A stretch of DNA of 64,000 bases from Candidatus Latescibacterota bacterium (GTDB lineage: Bacteria; Krumholzibacteriota; Krumholzibacteriia; WVZY01), in NCBI GenBank assembly GCA_963791045.1, contig CAWBQK010000007.1, forward strand, positions 1 to 64,000. The letters run 5' to 3'. The position numbers were made by a program, and so were the translations under genes. How positions within the stretch are numbered: position 1 is the first letter of the stretch; each line of letters opens with the position of its first letter. Below, one piece after another: positions 9,612-41,596 of the stretch. The notes below the pieces were generated by a model. The model was not told the origin of the DNA. It did not search any database and saw only the letters and a program-made list of their open reading frames with translations.

Positions 9612-10990
9612 TTTGCTCCGGCTTTCTCTCCCGCTGCGCGCTCTTCGCGGGCCTTTTCTTCTTTTTCTCTCGCTTGCTTTTCGCGGAGCATCGCCTTTGC
9701 CACTCTGAACCGCTGGACGAGCGGGATGTTTGACGGGCACACATACGAGCACGATCCGCATTCAATGCAATCCATTATATTATAGTCGAGCATGTCCGCG
9801 AAGCGTCCCACGCGGGAGAGCATCCCAAGCTGGCTGGGGTTGAGAAATACGGGGCAAGCGCCGAGGCATGCCGAACACTTGATGCACGGGTACTCGCGCC
9901 GTGACATTACTTCTTTTTCAGTGAGGCAGACGATACCCGACGTGCCTTTCAAGACGGGTACTTCGAGATTATACTGGGGCGTTCCCATCATCGGTCCGCC
10001 GAAGAGGACTTGTCTCGCGTCGTCGGTCAACCCGCCGCAGTAGGAGAGCACATCGTGGAGTTTGGTTCCGATCGGTATAAGAAGCGTCGACGGCGTGTCG
10101 ATGCCCGCGCCCGTCACGGTGACGACCCTCTCTATCAAAGGCTGCCCGAACTCGAAGAGATCTCCCACTCCGGCGACGGTTGCCACGTTTTGGACAACCA
10201 CTTGTACGTCTATTGGCAAGTTGCCCGATGGGACTTCGCGGTCGATAACGGCCGAGATGAGCATCTTCTCGGCGCCCTGCGGATATTTTGTCTGGAGCGG
10301 AATCAACTCGCATGGCAAATCGGCCGGGATTCTGTCTCTCAATATCTTTATGGCGTCCCACTTGTTGGTCTCAACGCCTATAAATGATTTCTCAGATCCG
10401 AGAATCTTCTGAATGACACGGACGCCAAGAAAGATCTGGTCGGCCCACTCGAGCATTACTCGATGGTCGCTCGTCAAATACGGCTCGCACTCACAGCCGT
10501 TGACAAAGAAATATTGAACCCGTTTACCTTCGGGGGGTGCGAGCTTTACATGAGTGGGAAAAGCGGCTCCGCCCAGACCCACAAAACCGCCGTCCTGGAT
10601 TTTTTGAAGGAGTTCTTTGGGGTTGAGGCGCTCCCAATCAATGGGGCGTTCGTCGAAAAGCGTCTGCGGAGAGTGCGGGTCGCTCTCTATCACGATCGAT
10701 TCGACGAGGCGGCCCGAAGGGTGGTGTCTGTTTTCGATGGCGGTAACTTTACCGGTGACCGACGCGTGCAGAGGAACCGATACAAAGCCGTTCGCGGTGG
10801 CGATAACCTGCCCGCGGTATACTTTGTCGCCGACCGACACTGTCGATTCCGAAGGCGCCCCCAGATGCTGGCTAAGGGGCAGGATTACCTCGTCGGGAAC
10901 GGGTATCCGCTCGATTTTCTGACCTTCCGTCAGATGCTTGTGCCCCTCCGGATGAACTCCGTGGCGAAATGTCTTTGTTCGCTCAGTCAT
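9608..10990 (-). CDS. rnfC: Rnf electron transport complex subunit C
   Basis: QHLGAP, GLGGAAFPTHVK, NGCECEPYLTSD, KYPQGAEK, GGPMMG; two 4Fe-4S motifs (CIKCSACLGACP, CIECGSCSYVCP). Confidence 0.97.
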   Translation of the reverse strand: MTERTKTFRHGVHPEGHKHLTEGQKIERIPVPDEVILPLSQHLGAPSESTVSVGDKVYRGQVIATANGFVSVPLHASVTGKVTAIENRHHPSGRLVESIVIESDPHSPQTLFDERPIDWERLNPKELLQKIQDGGFVGLGGAAFPTHVKLAPPEGKRVQYFFVNGCECEPYLTSDHRVMLEWADQIFLGVRVIQKILGSEKSFIGVETNKWDAIKILRDRIPADLPCELIPLQTKYPQGAEKMLISAVIDREVPSGNLPIDVQVVVQNVATVAGVGDLFEFGQPLIERVVTVTGAGIDTPSTLLIPIGTKLHDVLSYCGGLTDDARQVLFGGPMMGTPQYNLEVPVLKGTSGIVCLTEKEVMSRREYPCIKCSACLGACPVFLNPSQLGMLSRVGRFADMLDYNIMDCIECGSCSYVCPSNIPLVQRFRVAKAMLREKQAREKEEKAREERAAGEKAGAK

Positions 10991-23757: not shown

Positions 23758-26700
23758 ATGAAGAGAACCGCCCTTGTTGGGGTGGGCGTTCTTGTGCTTT
23801 TCTGTGCCCTGCTCTCGAGCAGCGCGTCCTATCCGGAAAAACACTCAGCCGCCCTCACTCCTCTGCTTTCCAATCTTACACTCACATCGACATCCGGACT
23901 GGATCTCACGCACGATGATCTTGTGTGCGCTTTCGATCTGTCCGGTGACGCAACAACGACGGCGACGGCGTGGTACATCGGTGACTCGCCCCCGGCGCCG
24001 ATCATGGTGCTGTATGCGCCGTTCGAGGGCGGGGCGACAAGCGCGCTCGTCGACTATTCGGGAAACAGCTTGCCGGTGTCCCCAAACGGTGACCCTACAT
24101 GGGACGCGACAGGCGGTCACGACGGCAACGGTGCGTTTGTTTTTGATGGAAACGACGACCTTACGGGGGGCGAGAATTTCCCCGTCGGATCTTCATACAC
24201 AAAAACAGCGTGGGTATACCGGACGGGAAGCGGGAACAACGGCGGAAACAACGTTATGGCTGGTGACGCCAACGGCGGTGGACATGCTTTCTGGGCGCCC
24301 GACTCCTACGGCAACAAGCTCTCCGCCGGACACAACGGCACGTGGAACTCCGTCCAGGACGGAGTTGCCCTTGCTCTCAATACGTGGTTTTTCGTCGCGG
24401 TGTCTTGGGATGCCGCCACAAACGAGATGGTACTCTACAAGAATGGCGAACCGATCGACAACGCAACGGTTTCCGCGCTGGTTACCGACGCGACGATCTC
24501 GATTGGCTCTTTCGGTTATGGCAACGGGTACATGTGGCAGGGAACGCTCGACGATGTCAGGCTCTACAATCGGGCGCTGTCAGCGGAGCAGATTCAAGCG
24601 ATGTATTACGACGGCTCCAATGTCATCAAGTACGCCGAAACAGAAGTCGGTGACATCTGGCAGGCGCGAGTCACTCCTTTTTCTCAGAGCGAAGCAGGAA
24701 CAACAACAAACAGCGACACGCTCGTTGTCCTGGCTGGATCACCGATAGTGCCGGAGATCACATCGGCGCCTTCGACATCGGCGGTCGTCGGCCAACTTTA
24801 CACCTATGATGCCGACGCGACGGGAAGCCCCGCGGTGGTATTCGCGCTCAGCGGCTCTCCCGCGGGAATGACGATAAACGCTTACACCGGCCTCATCGAA
24901 TGGACGCCGTCCGCGCCGGGAAGCCAGTTGGTGTCGGTCGACGCCTCGAACTCCGCCGGGACGGACAATCAAACCTATGAGATTACGATTACCGCGGGCC
25001 CCGTGCCCGGAATCGAAAACCTCGCGTTGACTTCAACATCGGGGAACGATTTGCCCGCCGACGATCTTACGTGTACGTACGATCTCGCCGGCGTGGCGAC
25101 GACGGCGGCGACGGCCTGGTACGCCGGGTTCATCGCCACCGCTTTCACCTGTAATGGTCTTGATGATGCCCTTCGAAGGGGGAGCGACAAACGCGCTCAT
25201 CGACTATTCAGGGAACAGCTTGCCCGTGACGCCAAACGGCGATCCTACATGGGATGCGACCGCCGGTCACGACGGCAACGGTGCGTTTGTTTTTGATGGA
25301 AACGATGACCTGGCCGCAGGCGAGAATTTCCCCGTCGGATCTTCATATACGAAAACGGCGTGGGTGTACCGGACGGGAAGTGGTGCTAACGGTGGAAACA
25401 ACGTTATGGCCGGTGACGCCAACGGCGGCGGCCACGCTTTCTGGGCGCCTGACTCCTACGGTAACAAGCTCTCCGCCGGTCACAACGGCACATGGAATTC
25501 CGTCCAGGATAATGTCGCGCTTGCTCTCAACACGTGGTTCTTCGTCGCGTTGTCCTGGGATGCGGACAGCGGCAAGATGGTAATGTACAAGGACGGCGTG
25601 GCGATTGACAGCGCGACGGTAACGGCTCAGGTGACCGACGCAACCATATCAATCGGTTCTTTTGGCGCAAGCAATGGCTATATGTGGATGGGGACGCTCG
25701 ACGACGTTCGTCTTTATAACCGGGCCCTCACGTCCGAACAGATCTTCTCCCTCTACAACGGCCCGAATGTTATCCGGTCGACCGAAACGGCGGCCGGCGA
25801 CCTCTGGGTCGCCTGCGTGACACCATTTTCGGCAAGCGCAGCAGGCGTGACGGCATGTGCCGACACCATCGCCATCCAGGCTCTCCCTGAGCGACCCGAG
25901 ATCACAACGGCGCCGCCGACGACGGCAATTGTGGGTCAGCTCTACTCGTACGACGTCGACGCGACCGGTTTTCCAGTGCCGACCTATTCGCTTGGAGACC
26001 ATCCGGCGGGTATGACGATCGATACGCTCACCGGTCTCGTTCAGTGGACCCCCGCAACGGATGGCAGCACACTTGCCACCGTGGTTGCGATGAACAGCGC
26101 AGGCGCGGACAGCCAGACCTACGAGATTGTGGTTTCGGAACCGCCACCGTGTCCGCTCGAGCTTGTCCACTATTACAAGTTTGACGATGCCGCTGAGCCC
26201 TACGAGGACTTCATCTTGGGGAACGATGGTATTTGCGTGACGGATTGTCCGGTGTTGGTGGCCAGCCCGTTGAATGGCGCGCAGCTGTTCGATGGTGAGG
26301 TTGACGAAGTTGACTTGCCGGATGACGGCACCTTCGACTGGCCCTCGGATGCGAGCTTCACAATAGAATTCTGGATGAAGACAAACGAGAGTCGATCGGG
26401 GAACCGGGTCATCATTGGCCGCGATGCGGGGTCGGCAAGCGGCCTCCATTGGTGGATCGGTATGGACGGCAACCGCACGGTTCGTTTCCAGTGCCGCGAC
26501 ACGAGCGGCAGTGGGCTCTACCTCGGCGGCACCGGTCCGGTGCTCAATGATGACGAGTGGCACCACATCGTTGCCGTGCGGGACAACGACGCGGACATTA
26601 ATATGATCTATGTCGATGGTGATCTCATAGACGACGGGGCCTATAATTACGCTAACGGTTTCGAGGCCGATGTTCCGGTGAACGTCGGTTACCTCGTCCT

Positions 26701-28543
26701 TGGCGGTTACTACCGTTATCTCGGCAACCTCGATGAACTTGCAATCTACGACCGGGCGCTGCAGGAAAGCGAAATCGACGAACATTACGCCAACGGCCTT
26801 CTCGGAGTTGGAATTTGTACAGACGTCGATATAGCACCGGCAATTGTGTCGACACCGGTCACAACGGCGTCGGTTGGAGAACTCTACGCATACGACGTCA
26901 ACGCGACGGGGAACCCGGCGCCCACCTATGGGCTCACCGCGAACCCGGCGGGCATGACGATCGATCCGGTATCGGGTCTTATCCAGTGGACCCCCGCGGC
27001 GGCGGGCAGCGCGTTCGTAACCGTCGAGGCGGCCAACTCGGTGGGGACGGACACGCAAAGCTACGCGATTGCGATTTTCGCGCCACCGGCCCTGGCCAAT
27101 CTCGAATTGACTTCGACCAATTTTGGTCTCTACGCGACGACCGATGATCTCCTCTGTCAGTACGACCTTACAGATGGCGCTATCACCGCGGCGACGTCGT
27201 GGTACGTCAGCGGCTCACCGCTAATTCCTCTTATGACGCTTTACCTGCCGTTCGAGGGCGGCGCGGTGAATGCACTGAATGACTATTCAGGCAACGGTAT
27301 CACGACGACGCCGCACGGCAACACGCTGTGGAACGCGACCGCGGGCCATGACGGCTTCGGAGCGTTCGTGTTCGACGGCAACAGCGATATTGGTGCGGGC
27401 GAGAATTTCCCGCTCTCGTCGTCGTACACCAAGACGGCATGGGTGTACAGGACGGGGACCGGCGCCAATGGCGGCAACAACGTGATGGCGGGCAATGAGA
27501 ACACTGGCGGGCACGCGCTGTGGGCGCCCGACATGTTCGGCAACCATCTCTCCGGTGGGCACGACGGGACATGGGATATCGTCCAGGACAGCGTACCCCT
27601 GGCGCTCAACCAGTGGTTCTTCGTGGCGCTGAGCTTCGACTACGACACCGGTGTTATGCGGCTCTACAAAGACGATGTCGTTGTTGACAGCGCGGTTGTC
27701 GACCCCGCCAAACGTGACGTGACCGACGCGACCATCTCGGTCGGTTCTTTCGGCGCGCCGAACAGCTGGTCGTGGATGGGAACTCTCGACGATGTGAGGC
27801 TCTACAACCGGGCGTTGACGCACCAGCAGGTTCATGCGCTCTTCTTCGAGGGATCGAATGTCATCGACGCAGCCGAGACCGTGACCGGACAACAGTGGAT
27901 GGTGTGCGTGACGCCGTTCTCAGCGAACGATGCCGGCGCGACCGTATGCACGGATTCGATCACTATAATGGATGAGACAGTTCCGGTGATGGTCCGATCG
28001 TACGAGTCACGGTGGATCGACAATAATGTTGAAATCAGGTGGGTGCTGCACGGAGTGCCGGGCGAGCTCGACTTTGATATTTATCGCTCCGTGTCCGACG
28101 GGCCCTACGATCGGCTCCTCGGCGCGGACATCCGTCGGGACGGCGTGGACTACGTGCTTGTTGATGCTTCGGCGCAACCGGGGCGTGAGTATGCCTACCG
28201 TGTTTCGGTTCTCGAGGATGGCCGGCCGGTGACGTCGTTTGATACGGCTCCCACCGCGGCGGCGCTCAAGCTCGCACTTCACCAGAACCATCCAAACCCG
28301 TTCAACCCGACGACAACGATCGGGTTCACTCTGGACACGAGCGGTCATGTGTCGCTCCGCGTGTACGACATTTCGGGTCGGCTGATCCGGACTCTCGTCG
28401 ACCAGCAAAGAGCGCCCGGGGTCTTTTCTGAAGAGTGGGACGGACGGAACAGTTACGGCGAGCCCGCGGCCAGTGGAATCTATTTCTACAGGCTCACGGC
28501 GGGCAACAAGACACTGACCCGCAAGGCAGTGCTTCTTAAATAA
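23758..28543 (+). CDS. Giant secreted protein 1 (about 1595 aa): 4 LamG/ConA-like domains, 3 Ig/cadherin-like repeats, C-terminal FlgD-Ig/T9SS-like domain (one indel near 25130)
   Basis: AAGGAG RBS, signal peptide; LamG repeats (SYTKTAWV...WFFVA...LDDVRLYNRAL); Ig repeats (YTYDxDATG...PAGMTI...GLIxWTP); tail LHQNHPNPFNPTT...SGIYFYRL...RKAVLLK. Confidence 0.88.
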
Positions 28544-31600: not shown

Positions 31601-34600
31601 TCGAAGCGGATTCGTCGGTGACGATCACCGTGCTGCTCGCGCGGATCATCAACCGCAACCCGTACAGTCTCGACGACCACGCAGTTCAACGACGCCGTTG
31701 AAGGGATGGCGATGGACCGTGTTACCAACGCGGGGAACGACGCGTATCCCGACAACATCGTCATGGTCGACATGGAGGACGGCGCGGAAATCGTCTATTC
31801 GACGGACATGGATGACAATGTTCATCCCAATGACGCGGGATACGCGAAGATGGCGAACCTGTGGTACGCGCATCTCGATACGATGATATGCGGGGTTCAC
31901 GCGACGAGCGTCACGGTGACGTCGACCTCGGGGAATGATTACGACACGGACGACCTCACTTGCGCCTACGGTCTTACCGGTGATGCCACCACGGCCGCCA
32001 CTGCGTGGTACGTGGACAGTTCTCCGCTCATGACAATGTGTCTCCCGATGGAGGGCGGCGCGACCGCGGCATTGAGCGATTACTCGGGGAACGATCTTAC
32101 TGTTGTCGCGAACGGCGATCCCGTGTGGCTGCCGAACGGCGGCCACGACGGTCACGGCGCCTGGGAGTTCGACGGCGCCGGTGACGATCTGAGCGCCGGC
32201 GAGAATTTCCCCACAGGGTCGTCGTACACCAAGACCGCGTGGGTTTACCGGACGGGAAGCGGCGCGAATGGTGGAAACAACATTATCTCCGGCGATGAGA
32301 ACAGCGGGGGCCACGCACTCTGGGCTCCGGACTCGTACGGGAACAGGCTTTCCGGCGGTCACAACCAAACGTGGAATTCCGTCCAGGACGATGTGGCGCT
32401 CGCGCTCAATACGTGGTTCTTTGTGTCGCTGACTTTCGACGAAGCGACAGACAAAATGGTTCTCTACAAGAACGGCGTCGCGATCGACAGTGCGACAGTG
32501 TCGATATCGGTGACGGACCCTACGATCTCGATTGGATCGTTTGGCGTATCGAACGGTTTTATGTTGCAGGGCCGGATCGATGATCCGCGTGTATGGAACC
32601 GGGCGCTTACCGGCGAACAGATCCACTCCCTGTATGTGAGTGGAGCAAATGTGGTCAAGTCCACCGAAACGGTAATCGGCGAACAGTGGCACGCGGAAGT
32701 GACACCGTTCTCGGAAACGGACGCGGGATCGACGAGCCAGTCGAATACCGTGACAATTCAGGCGTCGTCACCGACAGCGCCGACAATTGTTTCCACGCCT
32801 GTTACGTCGGCTGAGGTCGGCTTGCTGTATACATACGATGTGAACGCGGTGGGGACACCCGCCGCGACCTATTCGCTTTTAACCAACCCGGAGCGGAATG
32901 ACGATCAATCCAGGCACGGGTGTGATCGAATGGACGCCGTCGGCGCTCCAGACCGGACCGCACAGCGTATCGGTCCAAGCGTTGAATTCGCAAGGGACTG
33001 ACGTCCAGAACTATACGGTCACCGTCGAGCAATCGGGGGATATCGTTCGCATCATGCCGCTCGGTGACTCGATAACCCGCGGGGCTTATGGAAGCGCAAC
33101 GAATGTCGGATATCGACGGCCGCTGTGGATGCAGCCTGAGCGGCGCCGGTTGTCCCGTTGAGTTTGTCGGACAATTCGAAGACGGGACCCCCGACGATTT
33201 CGACCGCAGTCACTACGGCATCGACGGTGAACGCGATGACGAGGTGGCGGCGAATGTCTACGGATACCTGCAGAATTATCCGGCGGACATCATCCTTCTC
33301 CATATCGGCACCAATGCGCTCGACACGAGTGAGAGCGATGTGGAGAACATCCTCGACGAAATCGACCGCTTCGAAGCGGATTCGTCGGTGACAATTACCG
33401 TCCTTCTCGCTCGGATAGTCAACCGCAACCCGTACAGCCTGACGACCACCCAGTTCAACGACGCCGTTGAAGGGATGGCGATGGACCGTGTTACTAATGC
33501 GGCGAACGACGCGTATCCCGACAACATCGTCATGGTTGATATGGAGGATGGCGCGGGAATCGTTTATTCGACGGACATGGCCGATGCCCTCCATCCCAAC
33601 GACGCGGGATACGAGAAGATGGCCGGCCTGTGGTACGCCCATCTCGACACCATGATCTGCGGGATCCAGGCGACGAGCGTCACGGTGACGTCCACGTCGG
33701 GGAATGATCTCGACACCGATGATCTCACCTGCGCCTACGGGCTTGGCGGTGACGCCACCACGGCCGCCACTGCGTGGTACATGGACGGATCGCCTGTGAT
33801 GAGGATGTTCCTCCCGATGGAGGGTGGCGCAACCGCGGCATTGAACGATTACTCGGGGAACGATCTTACTGTTGTCGCGAACGGCGATCCCGTGTGGCTG
33901 CCCAACGGCGGCCACGACGGCCACGGCGCGTGGGAGTTCGACGGCGCCGGGGATGAATTGAATGCCGGTGAGAATTTCCCCGTACTCGCGTCGTACACCA
34001 AGACGGCGTGGGTGTACAGGACGGGAAGCGGCGCCAACGGCGGAAACAATATCATTTCGGGGAACCAGGATCCCAACGGCCATGCGTTGTGGGCGGCGGA
34101 CCGTAACGAGAACCGGCTCTCCGCGGGGCACAATACCAACTGGGAGCTCGTCGAGGATACCGTACCGCTCGCCTTGAACACCTGGTTTTTCGTCGCGGTG
34201 AGCTACGACCGGTCCACGCACGTGATGACGCTGTACAAGAACGGGGCCGTTATCGATCAGGAGCCGGTTCCGGTGGCCGACCGTGATGTGCTGGATACGA
34301 CGATTTCGATCGGATCGTTCGGCGTGTCGAACGGCTGGATGTGGCAGGGAACGATCGATGACCCACGGATATGGACCCGTGTCCTTACCGATGACGAGAT
34401 CCTGTCGCTGTATACATCCGGACCCGATGTTATCAAGTGGAGCGAGACGAATGTGGGCGAGCAGTGGAGCGCCGCGGTGACACCGTTCTCGGAAACGGAC
34501 GCGGGCTCAACTGTCCAGTCGAATACGGTGACGATCCAGCCGTCGACACCGACGGCGCCGACAATTGTGTCCTCGCCTGTAACAACAGCTGAGCTCGGCG

Positions 34601-37155
34601 TGCTGTATACGTACGACGTGAACGCATCGGGGAGTCCGGCGCCGACGTACAGTCTCACCGACAACCCGGCGGGAATGACGATCAATACAACCACCGGGCT
34701 TATCGAATGGACACCGGCGCTTGCGGAAAGCGCGTACGTAACGGTCGTGGCGACCAACACGCAGGGCACGGACAGCCAGACCTACGGGATTGAGGTTACG
34801 GAGGGGGTAACTCCCACCGTAACCGATCTCGACCCTGACATCGACGTCGGGGAATGATTTCACGACCGATGACCTCACGTGCTCGTACACGCTTGCCAAT
34901 GGCGCGGCGACGGCGGCGACGGCGTGGTATCTTGGCGGCGATCCGCTTGTGCCTTTGATGGCGCTGTATCTCCCGATGGAGGGCGGCGCGACCGCGGCCT
35001 TGAACGATTATTCGGGCAATTCGATTGTCGCGACGGCACACGGCGATCCCGTGTGGCTCCCGACCGGCGGCCACGACGGACACGGCGCCTGGGAATTCGA
35101 CGGCTCCGGTGACGACCTCAACTGTGGTGAGAACTTCCCGACAGGGTCATCGTATACCAAGACCGCGTGGGTGTACCGGACGGGAAGCGGCGCGAACGGC
35201 GGAAACAACATTATCTCCGGCGACGCGAACAGCGGCGGTCACGCGATGTGGGCGCCGGATGGGTATGGCAACAAGCTTTCCGCCGGTCACAACGGCACCT
35301 GGAATTCCGTCCAGGACGATGTCGCGCTTGCGCTCAATACGTGGTTCTTCGTGTCGCTCACTTACGATGAAGGCACCGACAAGATGGTTCTCTACAAGAA
35401 CGGCATCGCGATCGACAGTGCGACCGTGTCGGTATCGGTGACCGACGCGACCATCTCGATCGCGTCGTTTGGCGCGTCGAACGGTTACATGTTGCAGGGC
35501 CGGATCGATGACGCGCGTGTGTGGAACCGCGTGCTATCCGGTGAGCAGATCCACTCGCTCTATGCGAACGGCGCCGATGTTGTCAAATCCACTGAGACGG
35601 TTCTCGGCGATCACTGGCAGGCCGAGGTGACCGCATTCACGGCGGGCGAAGTCGGATCCACGGCATTGACCGATGTTCTTACCATCGTCGATATCGTGCC
35701 GACGCCGCCGGTGATCGTGTCGATCCCTGACACGACCGCTTTGACCGGGGAGCTTTACTCGTACAATGTTGATGCGACAGGAAGTCCCGCGCCTGCATAT
35801 GGATTGCTCGCCAATCCCGCGGGGATGACGATCAATTCCGGAAGCGGTCTCATAGAGTGGACCCCGTCACTTGCCGAAAGCGCTTTTGTCGAGGTTCGCG
35901 CGTTCAATTCCGAGGGAGCGGATACTCAAGCGTACTGGATCGAAGTCACCACACCTGTGGTTCCCGGTGTCGAGAATGTTGTGTTGACGTCGACCTCGGG
36001 CCACGACGACCCGACGGACGACATCACGAGTTCGTACGATTTCAACGGGGATGCCGTGACCGCTGCGACGGCGTGGTACAGCGGGTCGACCGGCTCTCCG
36101 CTCGATCCGCTTATGGCGTTCTACCTGCCGATGGAGGGTGGCGCGACCGCGGCGCTCAACGATTATTCGGGCAATTCGATTGTCGCGACAACGAACGGGA
36201 ACCCCGTGTGGCTCCCCACCGGTGGTCATGACGGCCACGGCGCGTGGGAGTTTGACGGTACAGGCGATGATCTCGACGGTGGTGAGAACTTCCCGACGAA
36301 CTCGTCGTACACAAAGACCGCCTGGGTGTACTGGACGGGGAGCGGCGAGAATGGCGGGAACAACATTATTGCCGGTGACCAAAACAGCGGAGGTCACGCA
36401 TTGTGGGCGGCGGACATGTTTAGCAACCACCTGTCGGCCGGTCACAATGGCACGTGGAATTCGGTTGAGGACGATGTCGCGCTCGCTCAGAACACCTGGG
36501 TGTTTGTCTCGCTCTCGTACGACGATGCGACCGATAAAATGGTTCTCTACAAGAACGGTGTGGCGATTGACAGCGCGACGGTGTCGACACCGGTTACCGA
36601 TCCGACCATATCGATCGGTTCGTTCGGTGCATCGAACGGCTGGATGATCCAGGGCCGGATCGACGACCCGCGGGTGTGGAACGCGCGCTCACCGGCGAAC
36701 AGATCTTTTCGCTGTATTCAACCGGCCAGGATGTTGTGAAGGCGACGGAAACACTCGAGGGTGAAGACTGGATGGCGTGCGTCACGCCGTTCTCGGCGTC
36801 GGATGTCGGGACGACTGTATGTTCGGACACGATGACGCTCGAAACGGGCACCGGTATTGGTGACACACCGGTTCCCACGCAAACAGCGCTGCACCAGAAC
36901 CACCCCAACCCGTTCAATCCGACGACGGCGATCAGTTATGATCTCGTGTCGAACACAAGAGTGTCGCTCAGGGTCTACGATGTCAGCGGCCGGCTTGTGA
37001 AGACACTGGTTGATGATATCCGGCCGGCCGGGCGCCAGACGACGACCTGGGATGGGACGGACAACTCGGGGAACCAGGTGAGCACGGGGGTCTATTTCTA
37101 CCGGTTGAATACCGCCGGCAATGTGTTCACGAAGAAGATGGTTCTTCTGAAATAA
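28664..37155 (+). CDS. Giant secreted protein 2 (about 2830 aa): 3 SGNH hydrolase, 6 LamG and 4 Ig domains, C-terminal FlgD-Ig/T9SS-like domain (split into 8 ORFs by indels)
   Basis: Signal peptide MRRTVMFVCAFFVLLALSAFS. The fragments join inside repeats that are intact in other copies. SGNH motifs IMPxGDSIT, LLHIGTN and DxxHPN; tail LHQNHPNPFNPTT...TGVYFYRL...KKMVLLK. Confidence 0.85.
31010..34550 (+). repeat. Intragenic tandem duplication of about 1.77 kb (Ig + SGNH + LamG module); boundaries approximate
   Basis: Long near-identical DNA stretches at an offset of about 1770, e.g. 31371-31640 versus 33141-33410. Confidence 0.85.
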
Positions 37156-37184
37156 ATTTGCAGACTCGCAAACCAGCCGACCAG

Positions 37185-37227
37185 GTCCGGCCGTCGGGTT
37201 GACAAAACCCGGCGGCCGGACTTTTTT
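37185..37227 (+). terminator. Intrinsic terminator
   Basis: 16-bp stem GTCCGGCCGTCGGGTT/AACCCGGCGGCCGGAC followed by T6. Confidence 0.9.
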
Positions 37228-37412
37228 AAGAAAAGCGCCGGGGCGTGAAAAGCATTATTGCGTTGGTGCTTGTTTAACTGAATCCCGTAATAAATTGATA
37301 AATAGTGATATACGACTTCGGTGTCTAGTTGTTAAAATTCTCTGATTATCATCCGCGCCTGTGTGTGATAGCGTGGGGCTTCTTTACCAAAGCGCCATGA
37401 GAGGTCCCCAAC

Positions 37413-38747
37413 GTGCCCCGACGGATTCGCAAAATCATTCTTCTCGCTCTCGTCTGCGCGCCCGCGTTGTTCGGGCCATCCGCCGTCCGTGCCGCGGCTA
37501 CCGCCGCCGATTCGACCGGCGCGACCGGCGCGCGGGAACCGCAACACCAGCGGATCACGGAAAGAGAAATTGAAGGTACGGGCAAAAAGATCGCGATGCT
37601 ACCCGTACGAATCCTCCTCCTCCCTTTCAGGCTTGTCGGCGCCGGGCTCGAAGCGGGGTTTGAAACCGTCGAAGAGAAGAACCTGATCAAAAGATCGACG
37701 TATTTTCGGCGCCGGTTGCGGGCGACCGGGTTGTCGCTCAGTTTTGGCGTCGGTTACGATGGCGCGGGACTTGGAGCGCGGGTGGGATGGACACCACCCC
37801 GCCGAAAAAAAATCACACCGACTTTGACGGCGGCGTTGTCCACAAATCTCTATCAGGTCTACGGTCTTCGTCTCGATTTTTCCCGCGTTTTCGCCAACAA
37901 GGTTGTCGCGGCCGCGGACTTCCGATACCTGGGACTCCCGCAGGAAGACTTCTTTGGAATAGGCCAGGACTCGCAGCGCGACGACAGGACGACATACAAC
38001 CGCGAAACCCCCGAGATCATAGTGAGTGTGTTCAAGCCGGTGCGTCCCAGGCTGCGCTTCGAGGCGGACGTTGGTTATCAGAAAAGTAATATCTTAAGCG
38101 GTGAGGACGAGAAGTTCCCGTCGATCGAAGAGGTCTTCGACGCGGCCGACGTGCCGGGACTCGATACCGGCGCCGAACTGCTGCTCGGCACGCTCGTTAT
38201 GGAGTGGATGAACCTCGATCGTCCGGGCGATCCCAGGTCCGGGATGTTTATCCGATTGCTTGGGGGAATCGCCAAGGATCTTCGGTCGGGCGATTTCGAT
38301 CACTGGCGGTATGGAGTCGATCTCCGCGTATACCTTCCCATGCTTGGTTGGGGCAACCGTTTCGGCCCGCGGAGCACACTCGCAGTTCGGGTTAAAGGTG
38401 ATTTCACCGACCCCATGAGCGGGGGAGACGTGCCGTTTTACCGCATGCCGACCGTTGGTGGCAGCACGACATTGCGTGGGTTTACGGAATTCCGATTTGC
38501 CGATCGCAACGCGATTGTGACCAATGTCGAATACAAGTACCCGATCCAGAAGATACTCGAAGCGGTGATTTTCTGGGACGAAGGTCAGGTGTTTCACACA
38601 ATGGACGAATTTAATATTCACAAGTTCAAGTCGTCGTTCGGCGGGGGAATGAGGCTCATTCTCGAACAAAGCGCGTTCGTCAGCCTGGAGATCGGCACGG
38701 GGTCCGAGGAAACACGATTCTATTTCAAATTTGGAAAGGCGTACTAG
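37413..38747 (+). CDS. Omp85 (BamA/TamA-family) outer-membrane barrel without obvious POTRA domains
   Basis: Signal peptide, amphipathic strands, loop-6 motif GGSTTLRGF, FWDEGQVF, SFGGGMR, C-terminal FYFKFGKAY. Confidence 0.88.
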   Translation: MPRRIRKIILLALVCAPALFGPSAVRAAATAADSTGATGAREPQHQRITEREIEGTGKKIAMLPVRILLLPFRLVGAGLEAGFETVEEKNLIKRSTYFRRRLRATGLSLSFGVGYDGAGLGARVGWTPPRRKKITPTLTAALSTNLYQVYGLRLDFSRVFANKVVAAADFRYLGLPQEDFFGIGQDSQRDDRTTYNRETPEIIVSVFKPVRPRLRFEADVGYQKSNILSGEDEKFPSIEEVFDAADVPGLDTGAELLLGTLVMEWMNLDRPGDPRSGMFIRLLGGIAKDLRSGDFDHWRYGVDLRVYLPMLGWGNRFGPRSTLAVRVKGDFTDPMSGGDVPFYRMPTVGGSTTLRGFTEFRFADRNAIVTNVEYKYPIQKILEAVIFWDEGQVFHTMDEFNIHKFKSSFGGGMRLILEQSAFVSLEIGTGSEETRFYFKFGKAY

Positions 38748-38760
38748 CCGCGTGTAAAGC

Positions 38761-40566
38761 ATGAGGGTTTTTGACAGGGCATATGATCGAATGACCGCGA
38801 CTGGATCGGGTACGCCGGCCCTGAAGTGGTGCTTCTCGGTATTCCTGGCGCTCGTGATTCTCGTTGGCGGTCTCGGGTGTGGCGGAAATCGTCACGAGTT
38901 CAAAAAACCCATCGAAGTTGATTTCGATATGGAGGACATCCCCGAACCCGAAGAAAAGAACCCGAGTCAATACTACGATTTTGTCGACCGGACATTCTTC
39001 AAGGAAACCATGCGCGGGCTCGACCTTCCCCGGCAGTTCAGGAAAATCCCCGGCAAACCCAAAGAAGCATTCAATGTGGACGCCATGGGCGGCGTTCCCA
39101 ACTCGAGCTGGTTTACAAACCGCAATGTCACAAGGCAAATGACTCTCGGTGAGATCAGACGCGGCCCCAACACCACCGACGGGCCGGCGGACAGCGTCTG
39201 GGCCGTCGTGCGCGGCAAAACCCAGGGGGTAACCCCCGGCTTCACGATAAAGGACTCACGCGGTGACCGGTATATCATCAAATTCGATCCGCCCCAGAAT
39301 CCGGAGATGAGTACGGCGGCGGAGGTGATTTCAACAAAGTTATTCTACGCGATGGGCTTCAACGTACCGGAGAATACCATTGTTCATTTTGATGTCGACC
39401 GGCTTGTCGTCGACGCGGATGCGAAATTTGTCGACAAGATAGGTCACAAGCGCGTCATGACTCAGAACGATTTGAGCGAGATGCTCCGGGCCGTCGCGCG
39501 CCGGTCGGACGGCACGTTTCGCGCGGTGGCGAGCAAATTTCTCGACGGCAAACCGAAAGGGCCGTACTCGTACATCGGTCTTCGTAAGGATGATCCCAAC
39601 GATATTATTCGCCACGAGCATCGCCGCGACCTGCGGGGCTTGAGGATTATGGCGGCATGGCTTCAACACAACGACGTCCGCAGGATCAACTCGCTGGACA
39701 TGTACGTGACCGAAGACGGGCGGAGTTTTCTCAAACATCATCTCATCGATTTTGGCGCGACCCTCGGGAGCGCGAGTCTTTTCCCAAACCCTCCGTCCGA
39801 GGGGCTCGAATACCAATTCGATACGCAGGAATCGTTAAAATCCCTTTTCTCGCTCGGTGTTTACAAACGGCCGTGGTACGACGCTCTCGAGGTTGAGTTT
39901 CCGTCGGTCGGATACATCGAATCGGAACTGTTCGACCCGTCGAGATGGAAGGCCAACTATCCGATCCCCGCGTTCCAGAACATGACGAGTCTCGACGCGT
40001 ATTGGGCGGCGAAGATTGTCATGTCGTTTACCGATGATCAGATCCGAGCCGCCGTCGAGATGGGAGATCTTACCGACAAGGGCGCGGAGGATTACCTCAC
40101 TAGGATTCTCGTTGAACGGCGGGACAAGATCGGCCGCTACTGGTTCGGCCGTGTCAACGCCCTGGACAATTTCTCGATCGTTCGCGACGGAGATGAGCAG
40201 CGACTCGAGTTCGACGATCTCGAAGTTGCCGCCGGATTCGAACGGGCGGCGGACACTTCGTACCGCTACGGTTTCTATCACAACGCGTGTGACGGCACAC
40301 ACGAACTTGCCGGTGACCGTGTGTTGGAATCACCCGGTGCAGACACCAGGCCGGGGATTCCCCTTGGATCCGAGTTCGCGAATATGGCATCCGAAGCTTT
40401 ATCGAGATCCGATTCGCGTAAAGACTGCGACAGGTATTTTTATGTCGTGGTGCGGACGGGGAGGGGGCCGGCGTCCGGCGATTGGGGAAAGTGGGTCAAG
40501 ATTCATCTCCACCTCGACGACTCCCGCCGCGGTTTTGAAATCGTCGGCGTCGATCGCGAGGGTTGA
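38761..40566 (+). CDS. Lipoprotein with atypical protein-kinase-like fold motifs (start may be 38791)
   Basis: Lipobox GLG-C40; Gly-rich GKTQGVTPG, YIIK174, E188, HND305xxxxN310, ID330FG. Confidence 0.72.
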   Translation: MRVFDRAYDRMTATGSGTPALKWCFSVFLALVILVGGLGCGGNRHEFKKPIEVDFDMEDIPEPEEKNPSQYYDFVDRTFFKETMRGLDLPRQFRKIPGKPKEAFNVDAMGGVPNSSWFTNRNVTRQMTLGEIRRGPNTTDGPADSVWAVVRGKTQGVTPGFTIKDSRGDRYIIKFDPPQNPEMSTAAEVISTKLFYAMGFNVPENTIVHFDVDRLVVDADAKFVDKIGHKRVMTQNDLSEMLRAVARRSDGTFRAVASKFLDGKPKGPYSYIGLRKDDPNDIIRHEHRRDLRGLRIMAAWLQHNDVRRINSLDMYVTEDGRSFLKHHLIDFGATLGSASLFPNPPSEGLEYQFDTQESLKSLFSLGVYKRPWYDALEVEFPSVGYIESELFDPSRWKANYPIPAFQNMTSLDAYWAAKIVMSFTDDQIRAAVEMGDLTDKGAEDYLTRILVERRDKIGRYWFGRVNALDNFSIVRDGDEQRLEFDDLEVAAGFERAADTSYRYGFYHNACDGTHELAGDRVLESPGADTRPGIPLGSEFANMASEALSRSDSRKDCDRYFYVVVRTGRGPASGDWGKWVKIHLHLDDSRRGFEIVGVDREG

Positions 40567-40567
40567 T

Positions 40568-41596
40568 CTACCCGTCGTATTTCGCGATGTATTCCTCGGC
40601 TTTTTCCACAAGCTCCTTGTTGCCCAGAAAAAGTGGTGTGCGCACGTGGAGTCCTTCGGGCTCGAGCTCGCGGAGCGGCCCGCGTCCCGTCGACGCGTAC
40701 CCGCCAGCTTGTTCGATAACAAACGCCATCGGGTTGGCCTCGTAGAGGAGCCGCAGTTTGCCGTGAGGTTTCTTGGGGTCTCTTGTATCCGCCGGGTAGT
40801 AGAACACTCCGCCGGCTAGAAGCGTGCGGTGGATATCGGCGACCATCGAACCGATGTATCTGAGCGAGTGCGACCGCGGCGCGCCCTCTTCCCCCTGGAG
40901 CCACCTCGTGTAGCGTTGAATCCCCTCCGTCCAATACTTTTCGTATCCCTGGTTTACGCTGTAATACTTGGGCGTTTCGGGGAGCCGGATGTCCGGGTGG
41001 GAAAGGAGGAACTCACCGATGCTCGGATCGAGCGTAAAACCGTTAACTCCGTGTCCCGCCGTATAGACGAGCATTGTGCTCGATCCGTACACCATGTACC
41101 CGCCGGCGACGATTTCCGAACCCTTCTGCAGGACGTCTTCTATCGTTCCGCGGCCGGACTTGGATTTGCGCTTGTAGATGGCGAAGATCGTGCCCACCGA
41201 GACATTGAAGTCGATATTCGAAGACCCATCGAGCGGGTCGAACAAAAGAACATAATTGCCCGTCTTGTGTTTGTCCGGAATCGGCATGATATCGTCTTCT
41301 TCTTCCGAAGCCATAACGGCGAGACGTTCGGTGTGGTTGTTGAGTTGAAAGATCGTGTTCTGCGCGTAGAGGTCGAGCTTCTGGACTTCTTCGTCCTGGA
41401 CGTTCGTATGTCCCGCCGCCCCGAGTATATCGGCGAGCCCCGCCCGGGTCGTCCGACTGGCGATGAGCTTGCCCGCAAGGGCGAGATCGTAGAGGAGCTG
41501 AGTGAGGGCTCCGCTCGCGTCGGGAAATTTCTCCTGGGCGTTGAGGATGTGTCGTTCGATTGTGATCACGTTGTGGTTGGCCGGTATCGATGGCAT
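40568..41596 (-). CDS. fbp: Fructose-1,6-bisphosphatase class 1
   Basis: [46 protein letters not shown]. Confidence 0.98.

Follow-up and report, generated by a model that had tools for sequence, protein, structure and literature searches.

A large family of exported proteins with a kinase fold, encoded beside an Omp85 barrel

Introduction

The bacterial periplasm is taught as an ATP-free compartment, and we know of no periplasmic or outer-membrane kinase system established in bacteria. In eukaryotes, the Golgi casein kinase Fam20C acts beyond the cytosol, in a lumen to which ATP has to be imported. Here we describe a locus in 64,000 nt of Candidatus Latescibacterota bacterium (GCA_963791045.1, contig CAWBQK010000007.1, positions 1 to 64,000, forward strand; the whole of this stretch is called the window), in which a gene for a predicted POTRA-less barrel of the Omp85 superfamily is followed directly by a gene for an exported protein modelled with a kinase fold, here called the kinase-like protein or the enzyme.

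The closest described relatives of the barrel are the noNterm Omp85 proteins, 16-stranded barrels which, like that of the window, have no POTRA domains (passages of Heinz and Lithgow 2014, PMC4104836). According to passages of a study of Leptospira (PMC11358297), this class is without an assigned function, and the noNterm paralogues of that genus have a lipoprotein gene immediately downstream, as does the barrel gene of the window. A further relevant group is that of the NTT-HEAT(-cNBD) fusions, which are widespread in free-living bacteria and whose role is treated as an open question in passages of Major, Embley and Williams (2017, PMC5381601).

A first-pass annotation of the window had read the two genes as a two-gene envelope phosphorylation system, in which the barrel exposes the kinase at the cell surface or delivers its substrate. 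We report the fold, conservation, genomic pairing and neighbourhood of the two proteins and weigh this and other readings against them.

Results

Fold and active site of the kinase-like protein

We modelled the kinase-like protein with AlphaFold, using an alignment of 50 homologues (33-63% identity to it) which also underlies the conservation counts given below. The resulting model (predicted local distance difference test, pLDDT, 92.3; predicted template modelling score, pTM, 0.91) was compared with 48,161 representative chains by using VIA-align, and was also searched with Foldseek. Every one of the 14 best VIA-align rows is an atypical kinase (Z 13.6 to 9.3): CtkA scores 13.6, Hydra Fam20 13.0, zebrafish Fam20C 12.8, PI4KIIalpha and CotH 12.5 each, actin-fragmin kinase 11.7, HipT 10.7, HipA 10.6 and MavQ 10.4. 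After the kinases the scores fall to Z 7-8, for FN3/Ig domains aligned over the C-terminal residues 466-590. The 10 best Foldseek rows are Fam20C or Fam20A (Fam20C at E 1e-5), and the next are CtkA, Rio2 and Hydra Fam20. As modelled, the second protein of the pair belongs to the protein-kinase-like fold superfamily and has a bilobal kinase fold, in agreement with what had been read from its motifs. The structural matches are spread over protein and lipid kinases and do not single out one substrate class.

The kinase motif set described in the first-pass annotation is present in the right order, with every named residue at the position given for it: G152-KTQGVTP-G160, Y171-I-I-K174, E188, D305-VRRI-N310 and D330-F-G332. 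Each of the five central residues is kept by 43 to 50 of the 50 homologues (K174 in 48, E188 in 43 with Asp in a further 6, D305 in all 50, N310 in 45 and D330 in 49), and G156 is found in 48, F331 in 41 and G332 in 39. In the model, K174 ends the strand 170-174 and E188 lies within helix 183-198, while helix 289-300 precedes D305-N310 and the strand pair 311-318/321-328 precedes D330, which is the order of a kinase. Just before the catalytic loop stands an invariant cluster of R275, D278, D281, R288, R289 and R292 (50/50 each); our guess is that it binds an anionic substrate. Judged by its sequence and its model, the protein is fairly likely to be a catalytically active phosphotransferase.

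The catalytic core is flanked by an N-terminal extension, modelled at pLDDT 88-97 from about residue 50, and by a C-terminal Ig-like domain, which is the least conserved part of the family. Cys40 follows the hydrophobic stretch LVILVGGLG, and a Cys occupies the same column in 34 of the 50 homologues. We take the LVGGLG-C40 pattern to fit a lipobox, and the protein is probably lipid-anchored at this residue.

Pairing with an Omp85 gene

Pairing was counted over 110 loci, of which 30 came from a sample of 201 genomes of the window's own phylum (the phylum sample; 1.5 kb flanks, window's locus included) and 80 were others with 4 kb flanks, the best 80 of 550 confirmed matches in species-representative genomes. 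Two places are present twice among the 110 (L004 = L031 and L013 = L063). A same-strand Omp85 gene lies directly upstream of the kinase-like gene in 95 of the 110 loci, and in 91 of the 100 that have at least 900 bp of upstream sequence. Counted as distinct assessable places, 89 of 98 have this arrangement (88 of 97 if the window's locus is excluded), so that the pairing first seen at a single locus is conserved. We regard it as very highly probable that barrel and enzyme form a real, conserved module. Apparent Omp85-kinase fusions in L094, L075 and L073 were examined and set aside, as the matches are truncated or split over frames in the way expected after a frameshift or deletion.

The barrel protein matches Pfam Omp85 (PF01103) over residues 105-442 at 69.8 bits (cut-off 24). 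No POTRA family was found in it by Pfam at E <= 1, and the NCBIfam Omp85_fam and BamA models remained under their cut-offs (TIGR03303 BamA, 39 bits vs 297). We modelled it by AlphaFold 2 with an alignment of 42 partner barrels from related loci. The model (pLDDT 86.4) has a signal helix, a disordered stretch, helices at 56-61, 63-88 and 91-104, and then 16 strands, without a beta-alpha-alpha-beta-beta POTRA unit. The layout is a signal peptide at about residues 1-26, a periplasmic helical region at 56-104 and a 16-stranded barrel at 105-444; the approximately 78 residues between signal peptide and barrel are modelled as disorder and helices. Foldseek matched the model to BamA and TamA barrels (E ~4e-14, TM-score up to 0.80 on the target), including BamA with bound lipoproteins (6t1w, BamA-RcsF; 7ojf, SlyB-BamA). 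By Pfam match and modelled domain layout, the protein is placed in the Omp85 superfamily, in the POTRA-less noNterm class, placement in the DUF5982 subgroup aside; the first-pass annotation had likewise called it an Omp85 protein without POTRA domains. Membership of the BamA, TamA or TpsB families was ruled out by the missing POTRA match and the low BamA equivalog score. Across loci the partner barrels diverge more than the enzymes do (mean column identity 26% vs 36%).

Complex prediction for the mature barrel and enzyme gave scores of 0.49, 0.56 and 0.50 (median 0.50), with the best control at 0.00; no fewer than 56% of contacts are common to the runs, with the partner pLDDT at 82 or above. 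In calibration, scores passing at <=0.60 were obtained for 18 of 157 solved complexes, and 2 of 215 mismatched pairs passed, both at <=0.60; a pass in this range is wrong more often than right unless the pair is likely beforehand. Contact between barrel and enzyme is likely beforehand because their synteny is conserved. The prediction lends weak support to binding, which is a minor point in what follows.

Family identity and distribution

Searched against Pfam, the kinase-like protein gave sub-threshold matches only (HipA_2, 18.7 bits with a cut-off of 27; HipA_C, 17.2 with a cut-off of 30.5), confined to the N-lobe at residues 148-217. Among the 50 family members, 3 matched HipA_2 and 1 matched HipA_C at E <= 0.05. 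No Fam20 or CotH Pfam family was matched by the protein at E <= 1 or by the 50 members at E <= 0.05, NCBIfam gave no match to the protein, and no kinase was retrieved from PDB sequences by phmmer with the protein or by hmmsearch with the 50-sequence profile. HipA membership was tried and rejected: hhalign against 12 canonical HipA proteins gave a probability of 2% (E 0.024) over 54 N-lobe columns, and the HipA matches lie below the Pfam cut-offs. The kinase-like proteins are a separate family of the kinase-like fold, not HipA. A canonical HipA toxin-type kinase is also encoded in the window's genome (G000:C11:402305-403000, L116; HipA_C E 4e-54), without bearing on the pair.

When 8000 candidates were scored, 3050 matched the kinase-like protein, all of them nameless or 'hypothetical' and without a Pfam domain. 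A search of every 50%-identity representative sized the family at 2982 clusters at E <= 1e-3 and 898 at E <= 1e-30. Record titles with the module include Krumholzibacteriia, Latescibacterota, Acidobacteriota, Ignavibacteria, Calditrichia, KSB1, Zixibacteria, Marinimicrobia, Gemmatimonadota, Planctomycetota, Bacteroidota, Myxococcota and others. The family was found in 78 of the 201 genomes of the phylum sample, 16 of which have 2-3 kinase-like matches. Second copies also occur in several genomes of Latescibacterota records (L008, L045, L056, L060 and others), some of them without an Omp85 neighbour. In a literature search by which subscription journals were largely uncovered, we found no description of the family, of its pairing with Omp85 or of a kinase link for NTT-like carriers. 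We conclude that these exported kinase-fold enzymes form a new and large family, and that they have an Omp85 protein as their dedicated partner.

Carrier and phosphoesterase genes beside the pair

The 325 neighbour proteins from the 80 loci were clustered, and the two largest families were a TLC carrier and a metallophosphoesterase. Carriers of the TLC (PF03219)/MFS type account for 41 genes in 29 of the 80 loci, mostly just downstream and on the same strand, some with HEAT repeats. The calcineurin-like metallophosphoesterase (Metallophos) is present in 18 of the 80, and many of its N-termini read as a signal peptide followed by Cys; PAP2 phosphatases are present in 4. Among the 63 loci with at least 2.5 kb of downstream sequence, 32 have a carrier, a phosphoesterase or both. 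Of the two-gene envelope system of the first-pass annotation, the unit of barrel and exported kinase-like enzyme stands (by fold, motifs and pairing), while the limitation to two genes does not hold generally, since the unit is usually larger.

In the phylum sample, a TLC match was found in 75 of 78 kinase-positive genomes vs 22 of 123 kinase-negative ones, that is, both in 75, the kinase only in 3 (completeness 80, 88 and 71%), TLC only in 22 and neither in 101. Within genera of variable presence, the kinase-like gene and TLC occur in the same genomes (g23, 3/8; g27, 2/7; g22, 1/3), a co-occurrence that is suggestive, related genomes not being independent. In genus g13, TLC matches are found in 16 of 17 genomes and the kinase-like gene in 0 of 17; these matches are weaker (E 1e-5 to 1e-9) and lie in frames of about 760 and 460-510 aa. 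Evidently, TLC carriers can exist without the kinase module.

Residues 130-470 of the kinase-like protein were searched against proteins of 1053-3005 aa, and 1 match was found among 1741 candidates. This protein, P0270 (1055 aa; one cluster, 2 contigs), is known from its protein sequence. Over its first 450 residues it shares 44-48% identity with the short carriers whose genes closely follow that of the kinase in L021, L005, L040 and other loci; this part is followed by a Pro-rich linker, an extra hydrophobic segment ending in LLSC and then the kinase-like part, the remainder being 31% identical to the kinase-like protein (E 6e-60). The C-terminus of TLC-type carriers is usually cytoplasmic, so the extra membrane pass would put the kinase part of P0270 in the periplasm, if the fusion is real. 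If real, it also ties the enzyme physically to a carrier. The same search gave no fusion of phosphoesterase, kinase and Omp85, a blank that is weak evidence.

Signalling genes were seen beside the pair as well: sensor histidine kinases in 12 of the 80 loci, several with 7TMR-DISM domains, and Hanks-type Ser/Thr kinases (Pkinase) in 8. They may regulate the module, or may stand there by chance.

Layout of the locus and of the window's genome

The features of the locus are listed in Table 1. Both open reading frames (ORFs) and their spacer are exactly as the first-pass annotation gave them, and the two genes are probably co-transcribed, as suggested by their 13-nt spacing. The terminator which it had placed between the upstream giant proteins and the pair is likewise present: its hairpin has a folding free energy (dG) of -38.6 kcal/mol (z -5.0), and 0 of 200 shuffles were equally stable. 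It marks the 5' boundary of the pair's transcription unit. At the other end, the stop codon of the convergent fructose-1,6-bisphosphatase (FBPase) gene lies one base past that of the kinase-like gene, and this 3' boundary means that no carrier gene follows the pair. With the terminator on the 5' side and the convergent gene on the 3' side, the pair is a self-contained two-gene unit in the window's genome.

Table 1. Coordinates of features of the locus in the window (position 1 is its first nucleotide).
Feature	Positions	Strand	Basis or remark
Intrinsic terminator of upstream gene with type IX secretion tail	37183..37229	+	18-bp hairpin 37183-37223, then U6
POTRA-less ('noNterm') Omp85-family barrel, 444 aa, GTG start	37413..38747	+	Pfam PF01103, AlphaFold 2 model
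Intergenic spacer, 13 nt, CCGCGTGTAAAGC	38748..38760	+	Between barrel and kinase-like ORFs
Kinase-like lipoprotein-type ORF, 601 aa	38761..40566	+	Open reading frame
Signal peptide and lipobox-like end (…LVGGLG-C40) of kinase-like protein	38761..38880	+	Sequence pattern
N-terminal extension, aa 41-133; conserved D56, P63, S115-x-W117, R121	38881..39159	+	50-homologue alignment
Protein-kinase-like catalytic core, aa 134-465	39160..40155	+	VIA-align, Foldseek, conservation
Catalytic loop to DFG, aa 303-332 (D305, N310, D330)	39667..39756	+	Conservation, secondary structure
C-terminal Ig/FN3-like beta-sandwich, aa 466-601, and stop codon	40156..40566	+	VIA-align
Fructose-1,6-bisphosphatase gene, convergent	40568..41596	-	Pfam FBPase E 3.4e-66

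The window's genome has one TLC match, a 917-aa TLC-HEAT protein on another contig, C11 (PF03219, 67.4 bits with a cut-off of 21; HEAT_2, 80.1 bits). The gene row there is metallophosphoesterase, TLC-HEAT, cNMP-binding and PAS histidine kinase. The TLC-HEAT protein is 57% identical (99% coverage), and the Metallophos protein 50%, to pair-linked copies in other genomes. That the set is split two and two in this genome argues that the pair is the core and that the rest of the set is accessory or acts in trans.

The C11 metallophosphoesterase (L112, G000:C11:130500-146500, ~9900-10060, minus strand) has no signal peptide in the frame of the gene itself. Shortly upstream, beyond a run of G, another frame contains a start that resembles a signal peptide, MTLAGSTRLIIMTICVC... 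The break is due to a frameshift or else to an assembly error at the homopolymer. The orthologues of other genomes start with a signal peptide and Cys.

Upstream of the terminator lie giant LamG/He_PIG/GDSL proteins with a type IX secretion C-terminal domain. The first-pass annotation had called them Ser/Thr-rich; their Ser+Thr content of 14-19% does exceed the 11% of the pair, and the label is overstated. The ORFs at 33088..34857, 34949..36739 and 36676..37155 (plus strand) carry repeated LamG (Laminin_G_3), He_PIG and GDSL-lipase domains, and the type IX secretion tail is found only on the last, short one. Together they look like a single large gene that frame changes have interrupted, through assembly errors or decay. 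An intact paralogue with the tail is present at 25154..28543 (1129 aa).

Discussion

A proposed nucleotide-fed enzyme docked to its barrel

Conserved pairing with an outer-membrane barrel and an intact kinase-type site together hint that some bacteria phosphorylate targets outside the cytoplasm. The arrangement that we favour is the following. One operon would encode an envelope enzyme complex, barrel first and enzyme second. The barrel would sit in the outer membrane and would have, instead of POTRA domains, a short periplasmic segment made of helices. The enzyme, an atypical kinase-like fold with a full catalytic set, would be exported by Sec, probably anchored by lipid at Cys40, and would dock on the barrel from the periplasmic side, where, with a nucleotide as phosphate donor, it would phosphorylate a substrate that belongs to the envelope or is exported. 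An ATP/ADP-carrier-like transporter of the inner membrane would supply the nucleotide by exchanging cytoplasmic ATP for periplasmic ADP, and the lipoprotein metallophosphoesterase would oppose or recycle the reaction. For this whole chain, in which we infer phosphotransfer, docking, membrane side, donor and carrier direction, we would put the chance a little below even. A broader form of the proposal is that, in diderms of many phyla, an NTT-type carrier exports ATP into the periplasm and a Fam20/CtkA-like kinase, held at a POTRA-less Omp85 barrel, phosphorylates envelope proteins, lipids or glycans, perhaps during their passage through or insertion by the barrel, with the phosphoesterase reversing or recycling the modification; we offer this tentatively and think it rather unlikely to hold in full.

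Several points weigh against such a chain. No carrier or phosphoesterase adjoins the pair in the window, and the short carrier encoded behind the kinase gene in two genomes of the same family (L004, L005) was not found in the window's genome, which is 81% complete. Neither accessory gene is seen nearby in 31 of the 63 loci, and 9 of the 98 distinct places have no Omp85 neighbour (L008, L052, L056, L060, L065, L072, L087, L094 and L107), having instead another upstream neighbour, an inserted extra gene (L052) or a barrel match inside the kinase's own frame (L094). The co-occurrence of kinase and TLC is overstated by the relatedness of the genomes, and TLC occurs without the kinase in 22 genomes, mostly of one genus. 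The P0270 fusion is a single cluster on 2 contigs, seen at the protein level only. The motifs were mapped to catalytic positions by order and secondary structure; kinase folds also catalyse other reactions, and SidJ, a glutamylase, is among the Foldseek rows. The transport direction of the carriers is an assumption of the proposal, and we know of no accepted precedent for ATP-dependent chemistry in the periplasm.

Alternative readings

The first-pass annotation had the barrel expose the kinase at the surface. In its fuller form, this reading makes the POTRA-less barrel a translocator devoted to the lipoprotein, comparable with Slam or two-partner secretion, which brings it to the cell surface to act on external substrates. 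The conserved gene order of barrel, then lipoprotein would suit it, as would the C-terminal Ig-like domain, of a kind common in surface proteins, and the fact that Leptospira noNterm Omp85 genes likewise precede lipoprotein genes, with a translocase role discussed in passages of PMC11358297. The same passages, however, count a dome that covers the barrel on its extracellular side as an argument against transport. An external enzyme would also have no evident phosphate donor, 16 of the 50 homologues are without the Cys, and the linked inner-membrane carrier-like genes and the carrier-tethered kinase of P0270 fit the periplasm better. We found nothing that favours surface exposure in particular and consider the reading unlikely. 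The same annotation had offered the adjacent LamG/He_PIG proteins as possible substrates. They adjoin the pair in the window, are exported as it is, and have the higher Ser+Thr content (14-19% vs 11%), but a strong terminator separates them from the pair, a cluster of proteins with type IX secretion tails occurs in only 6 of the 80 related loci, and the record titles with the module include Acidobacteriota and Myxococcota, phyla which to our knowledge lack type IX secretion. That these proteins are the kinase substrates is extremely improbable.

In a scavenging reading, external nucleotides or pieces of nucleic acid would enter through the barrel, to be bound or processed in the periplasm by the phosphoesterase and by the protein with the kinase fold, and the TLC carrier would import the products. 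Characterised TLC/NTT carriers do import nucleotides (passages of PMC5381601), and carrier, phosphoesterase and PAP2 phosphatases recur beside the pair. A role in binding or salvage gives no reason for the catalytic Asp/Asn/Asp and Lys to be so strictly conserved, a kinase step in salvage would still require a periplasmic donor, and we know of no Omp85 barrels that serve as solute channels; we judge this reading quite improbable. The lipoprotein might instead be a non-catalytic partner of a specialised Omp85 insertase, comparable with BamD or RcsF on BamA, its kinase fold serving as a scaffold. The match of the barrel model to BamA entries with bound lipoproteins (6t1w, 7ojf) and the weak pass in complex prediction are in line with this. 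Pseudokinases usually lose their catalytic residues, whereas here D305 is kept in 50/50 homologues, D330 in 49/50 and K174 in 48/50, and a scaffold leaves the recurring carrier and phosphoesterase genes unexplained; a purely structural role is very improbable.

Significance

Whatever its reaction, an exported family of 2982 clusters has an intact kinase active site and no family model that names it. Its pairing with a barrel of its own in roughly nine of ten places, and its link to ATP/ADP-carrier-like transporters, by neighbourhood, by genome co-occurrence and by one fusion, make the question of extracytoplasmic phosphorylation testable. A periplasmic, carrier-fed enzyme predicts that the carrier exports ATP, that the enzyme phosphorylates an envelope target and that the phosphoesterase opposes it. 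If these predictions were true, bacteria would have a counterpart of the ATP-fed Golgi kinase system, whose two halves, kinase with barrel and carrier with phosphoesterase, can function from different loci, as in the window's genome, and a first functional handle on noNterm Omp85 proteins would follow.

Comparison with known systems

The lipoproteins encoded downstream of the Leptospira noNterm genes differ from the kinase-like protein in that they carry DUF1566 or Big/integrin domains and not a kinase fold (passages of PMC11358297). The C11 arrangement of a TLC-HEAT gene followed by a cNMP-binding gene is that described for NTT-HEAT carriers in PMC5381601, of which the main-text passages draw no link from these carriers to a kinase-like protein or to Omp85.

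Among proteins of the same fold, CotH (5jda), PI4KIIalpha (4hnd), actin-fragmin kinase (1cja), HipA and HipT (4pu3, 7ab3) and MavQ (7m7a) align at Z 12.5 to 10.4, but all of them lack both a sequence match and an Omp85 partner. The best structural match is CtkA (JHP0940) of Helicobacter pylori (3akj/3akk), which aligns over 224 residues, model residues 139-471, at Z 13.6 and a root-mean-square deviation of 4.0 A. Like the kinase-like protein, CtkA is a bacterial protein of atypical kinase fold that is exported from the cytoplasm, namely a secreted HipA-like Ser/Thr kinase; the two differ in that no relationship is seen at the sequence level (HipA_C, 17.2 vs 30.5 bits; hhalign probability 2%). 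CtkA presumably has no lipobox, Omp85 partner or Ig-like tail, and we take it to act in host cells. The longest alignments, 264 residues starting from model residues 50-52, are with the Fam20 kinases (4kqa/4kqb/5yh0; Hydra 5xom), which in contrast are eukaryotic and have neither detectable sequence similarity to the kinase-like protein nor an outer-membrane partner. For an exported enzyme fed with nucleotide by a carrier, Fam20C in the ATP-fed lumen of the Golgi would nevertheless be the closest functional analogy.

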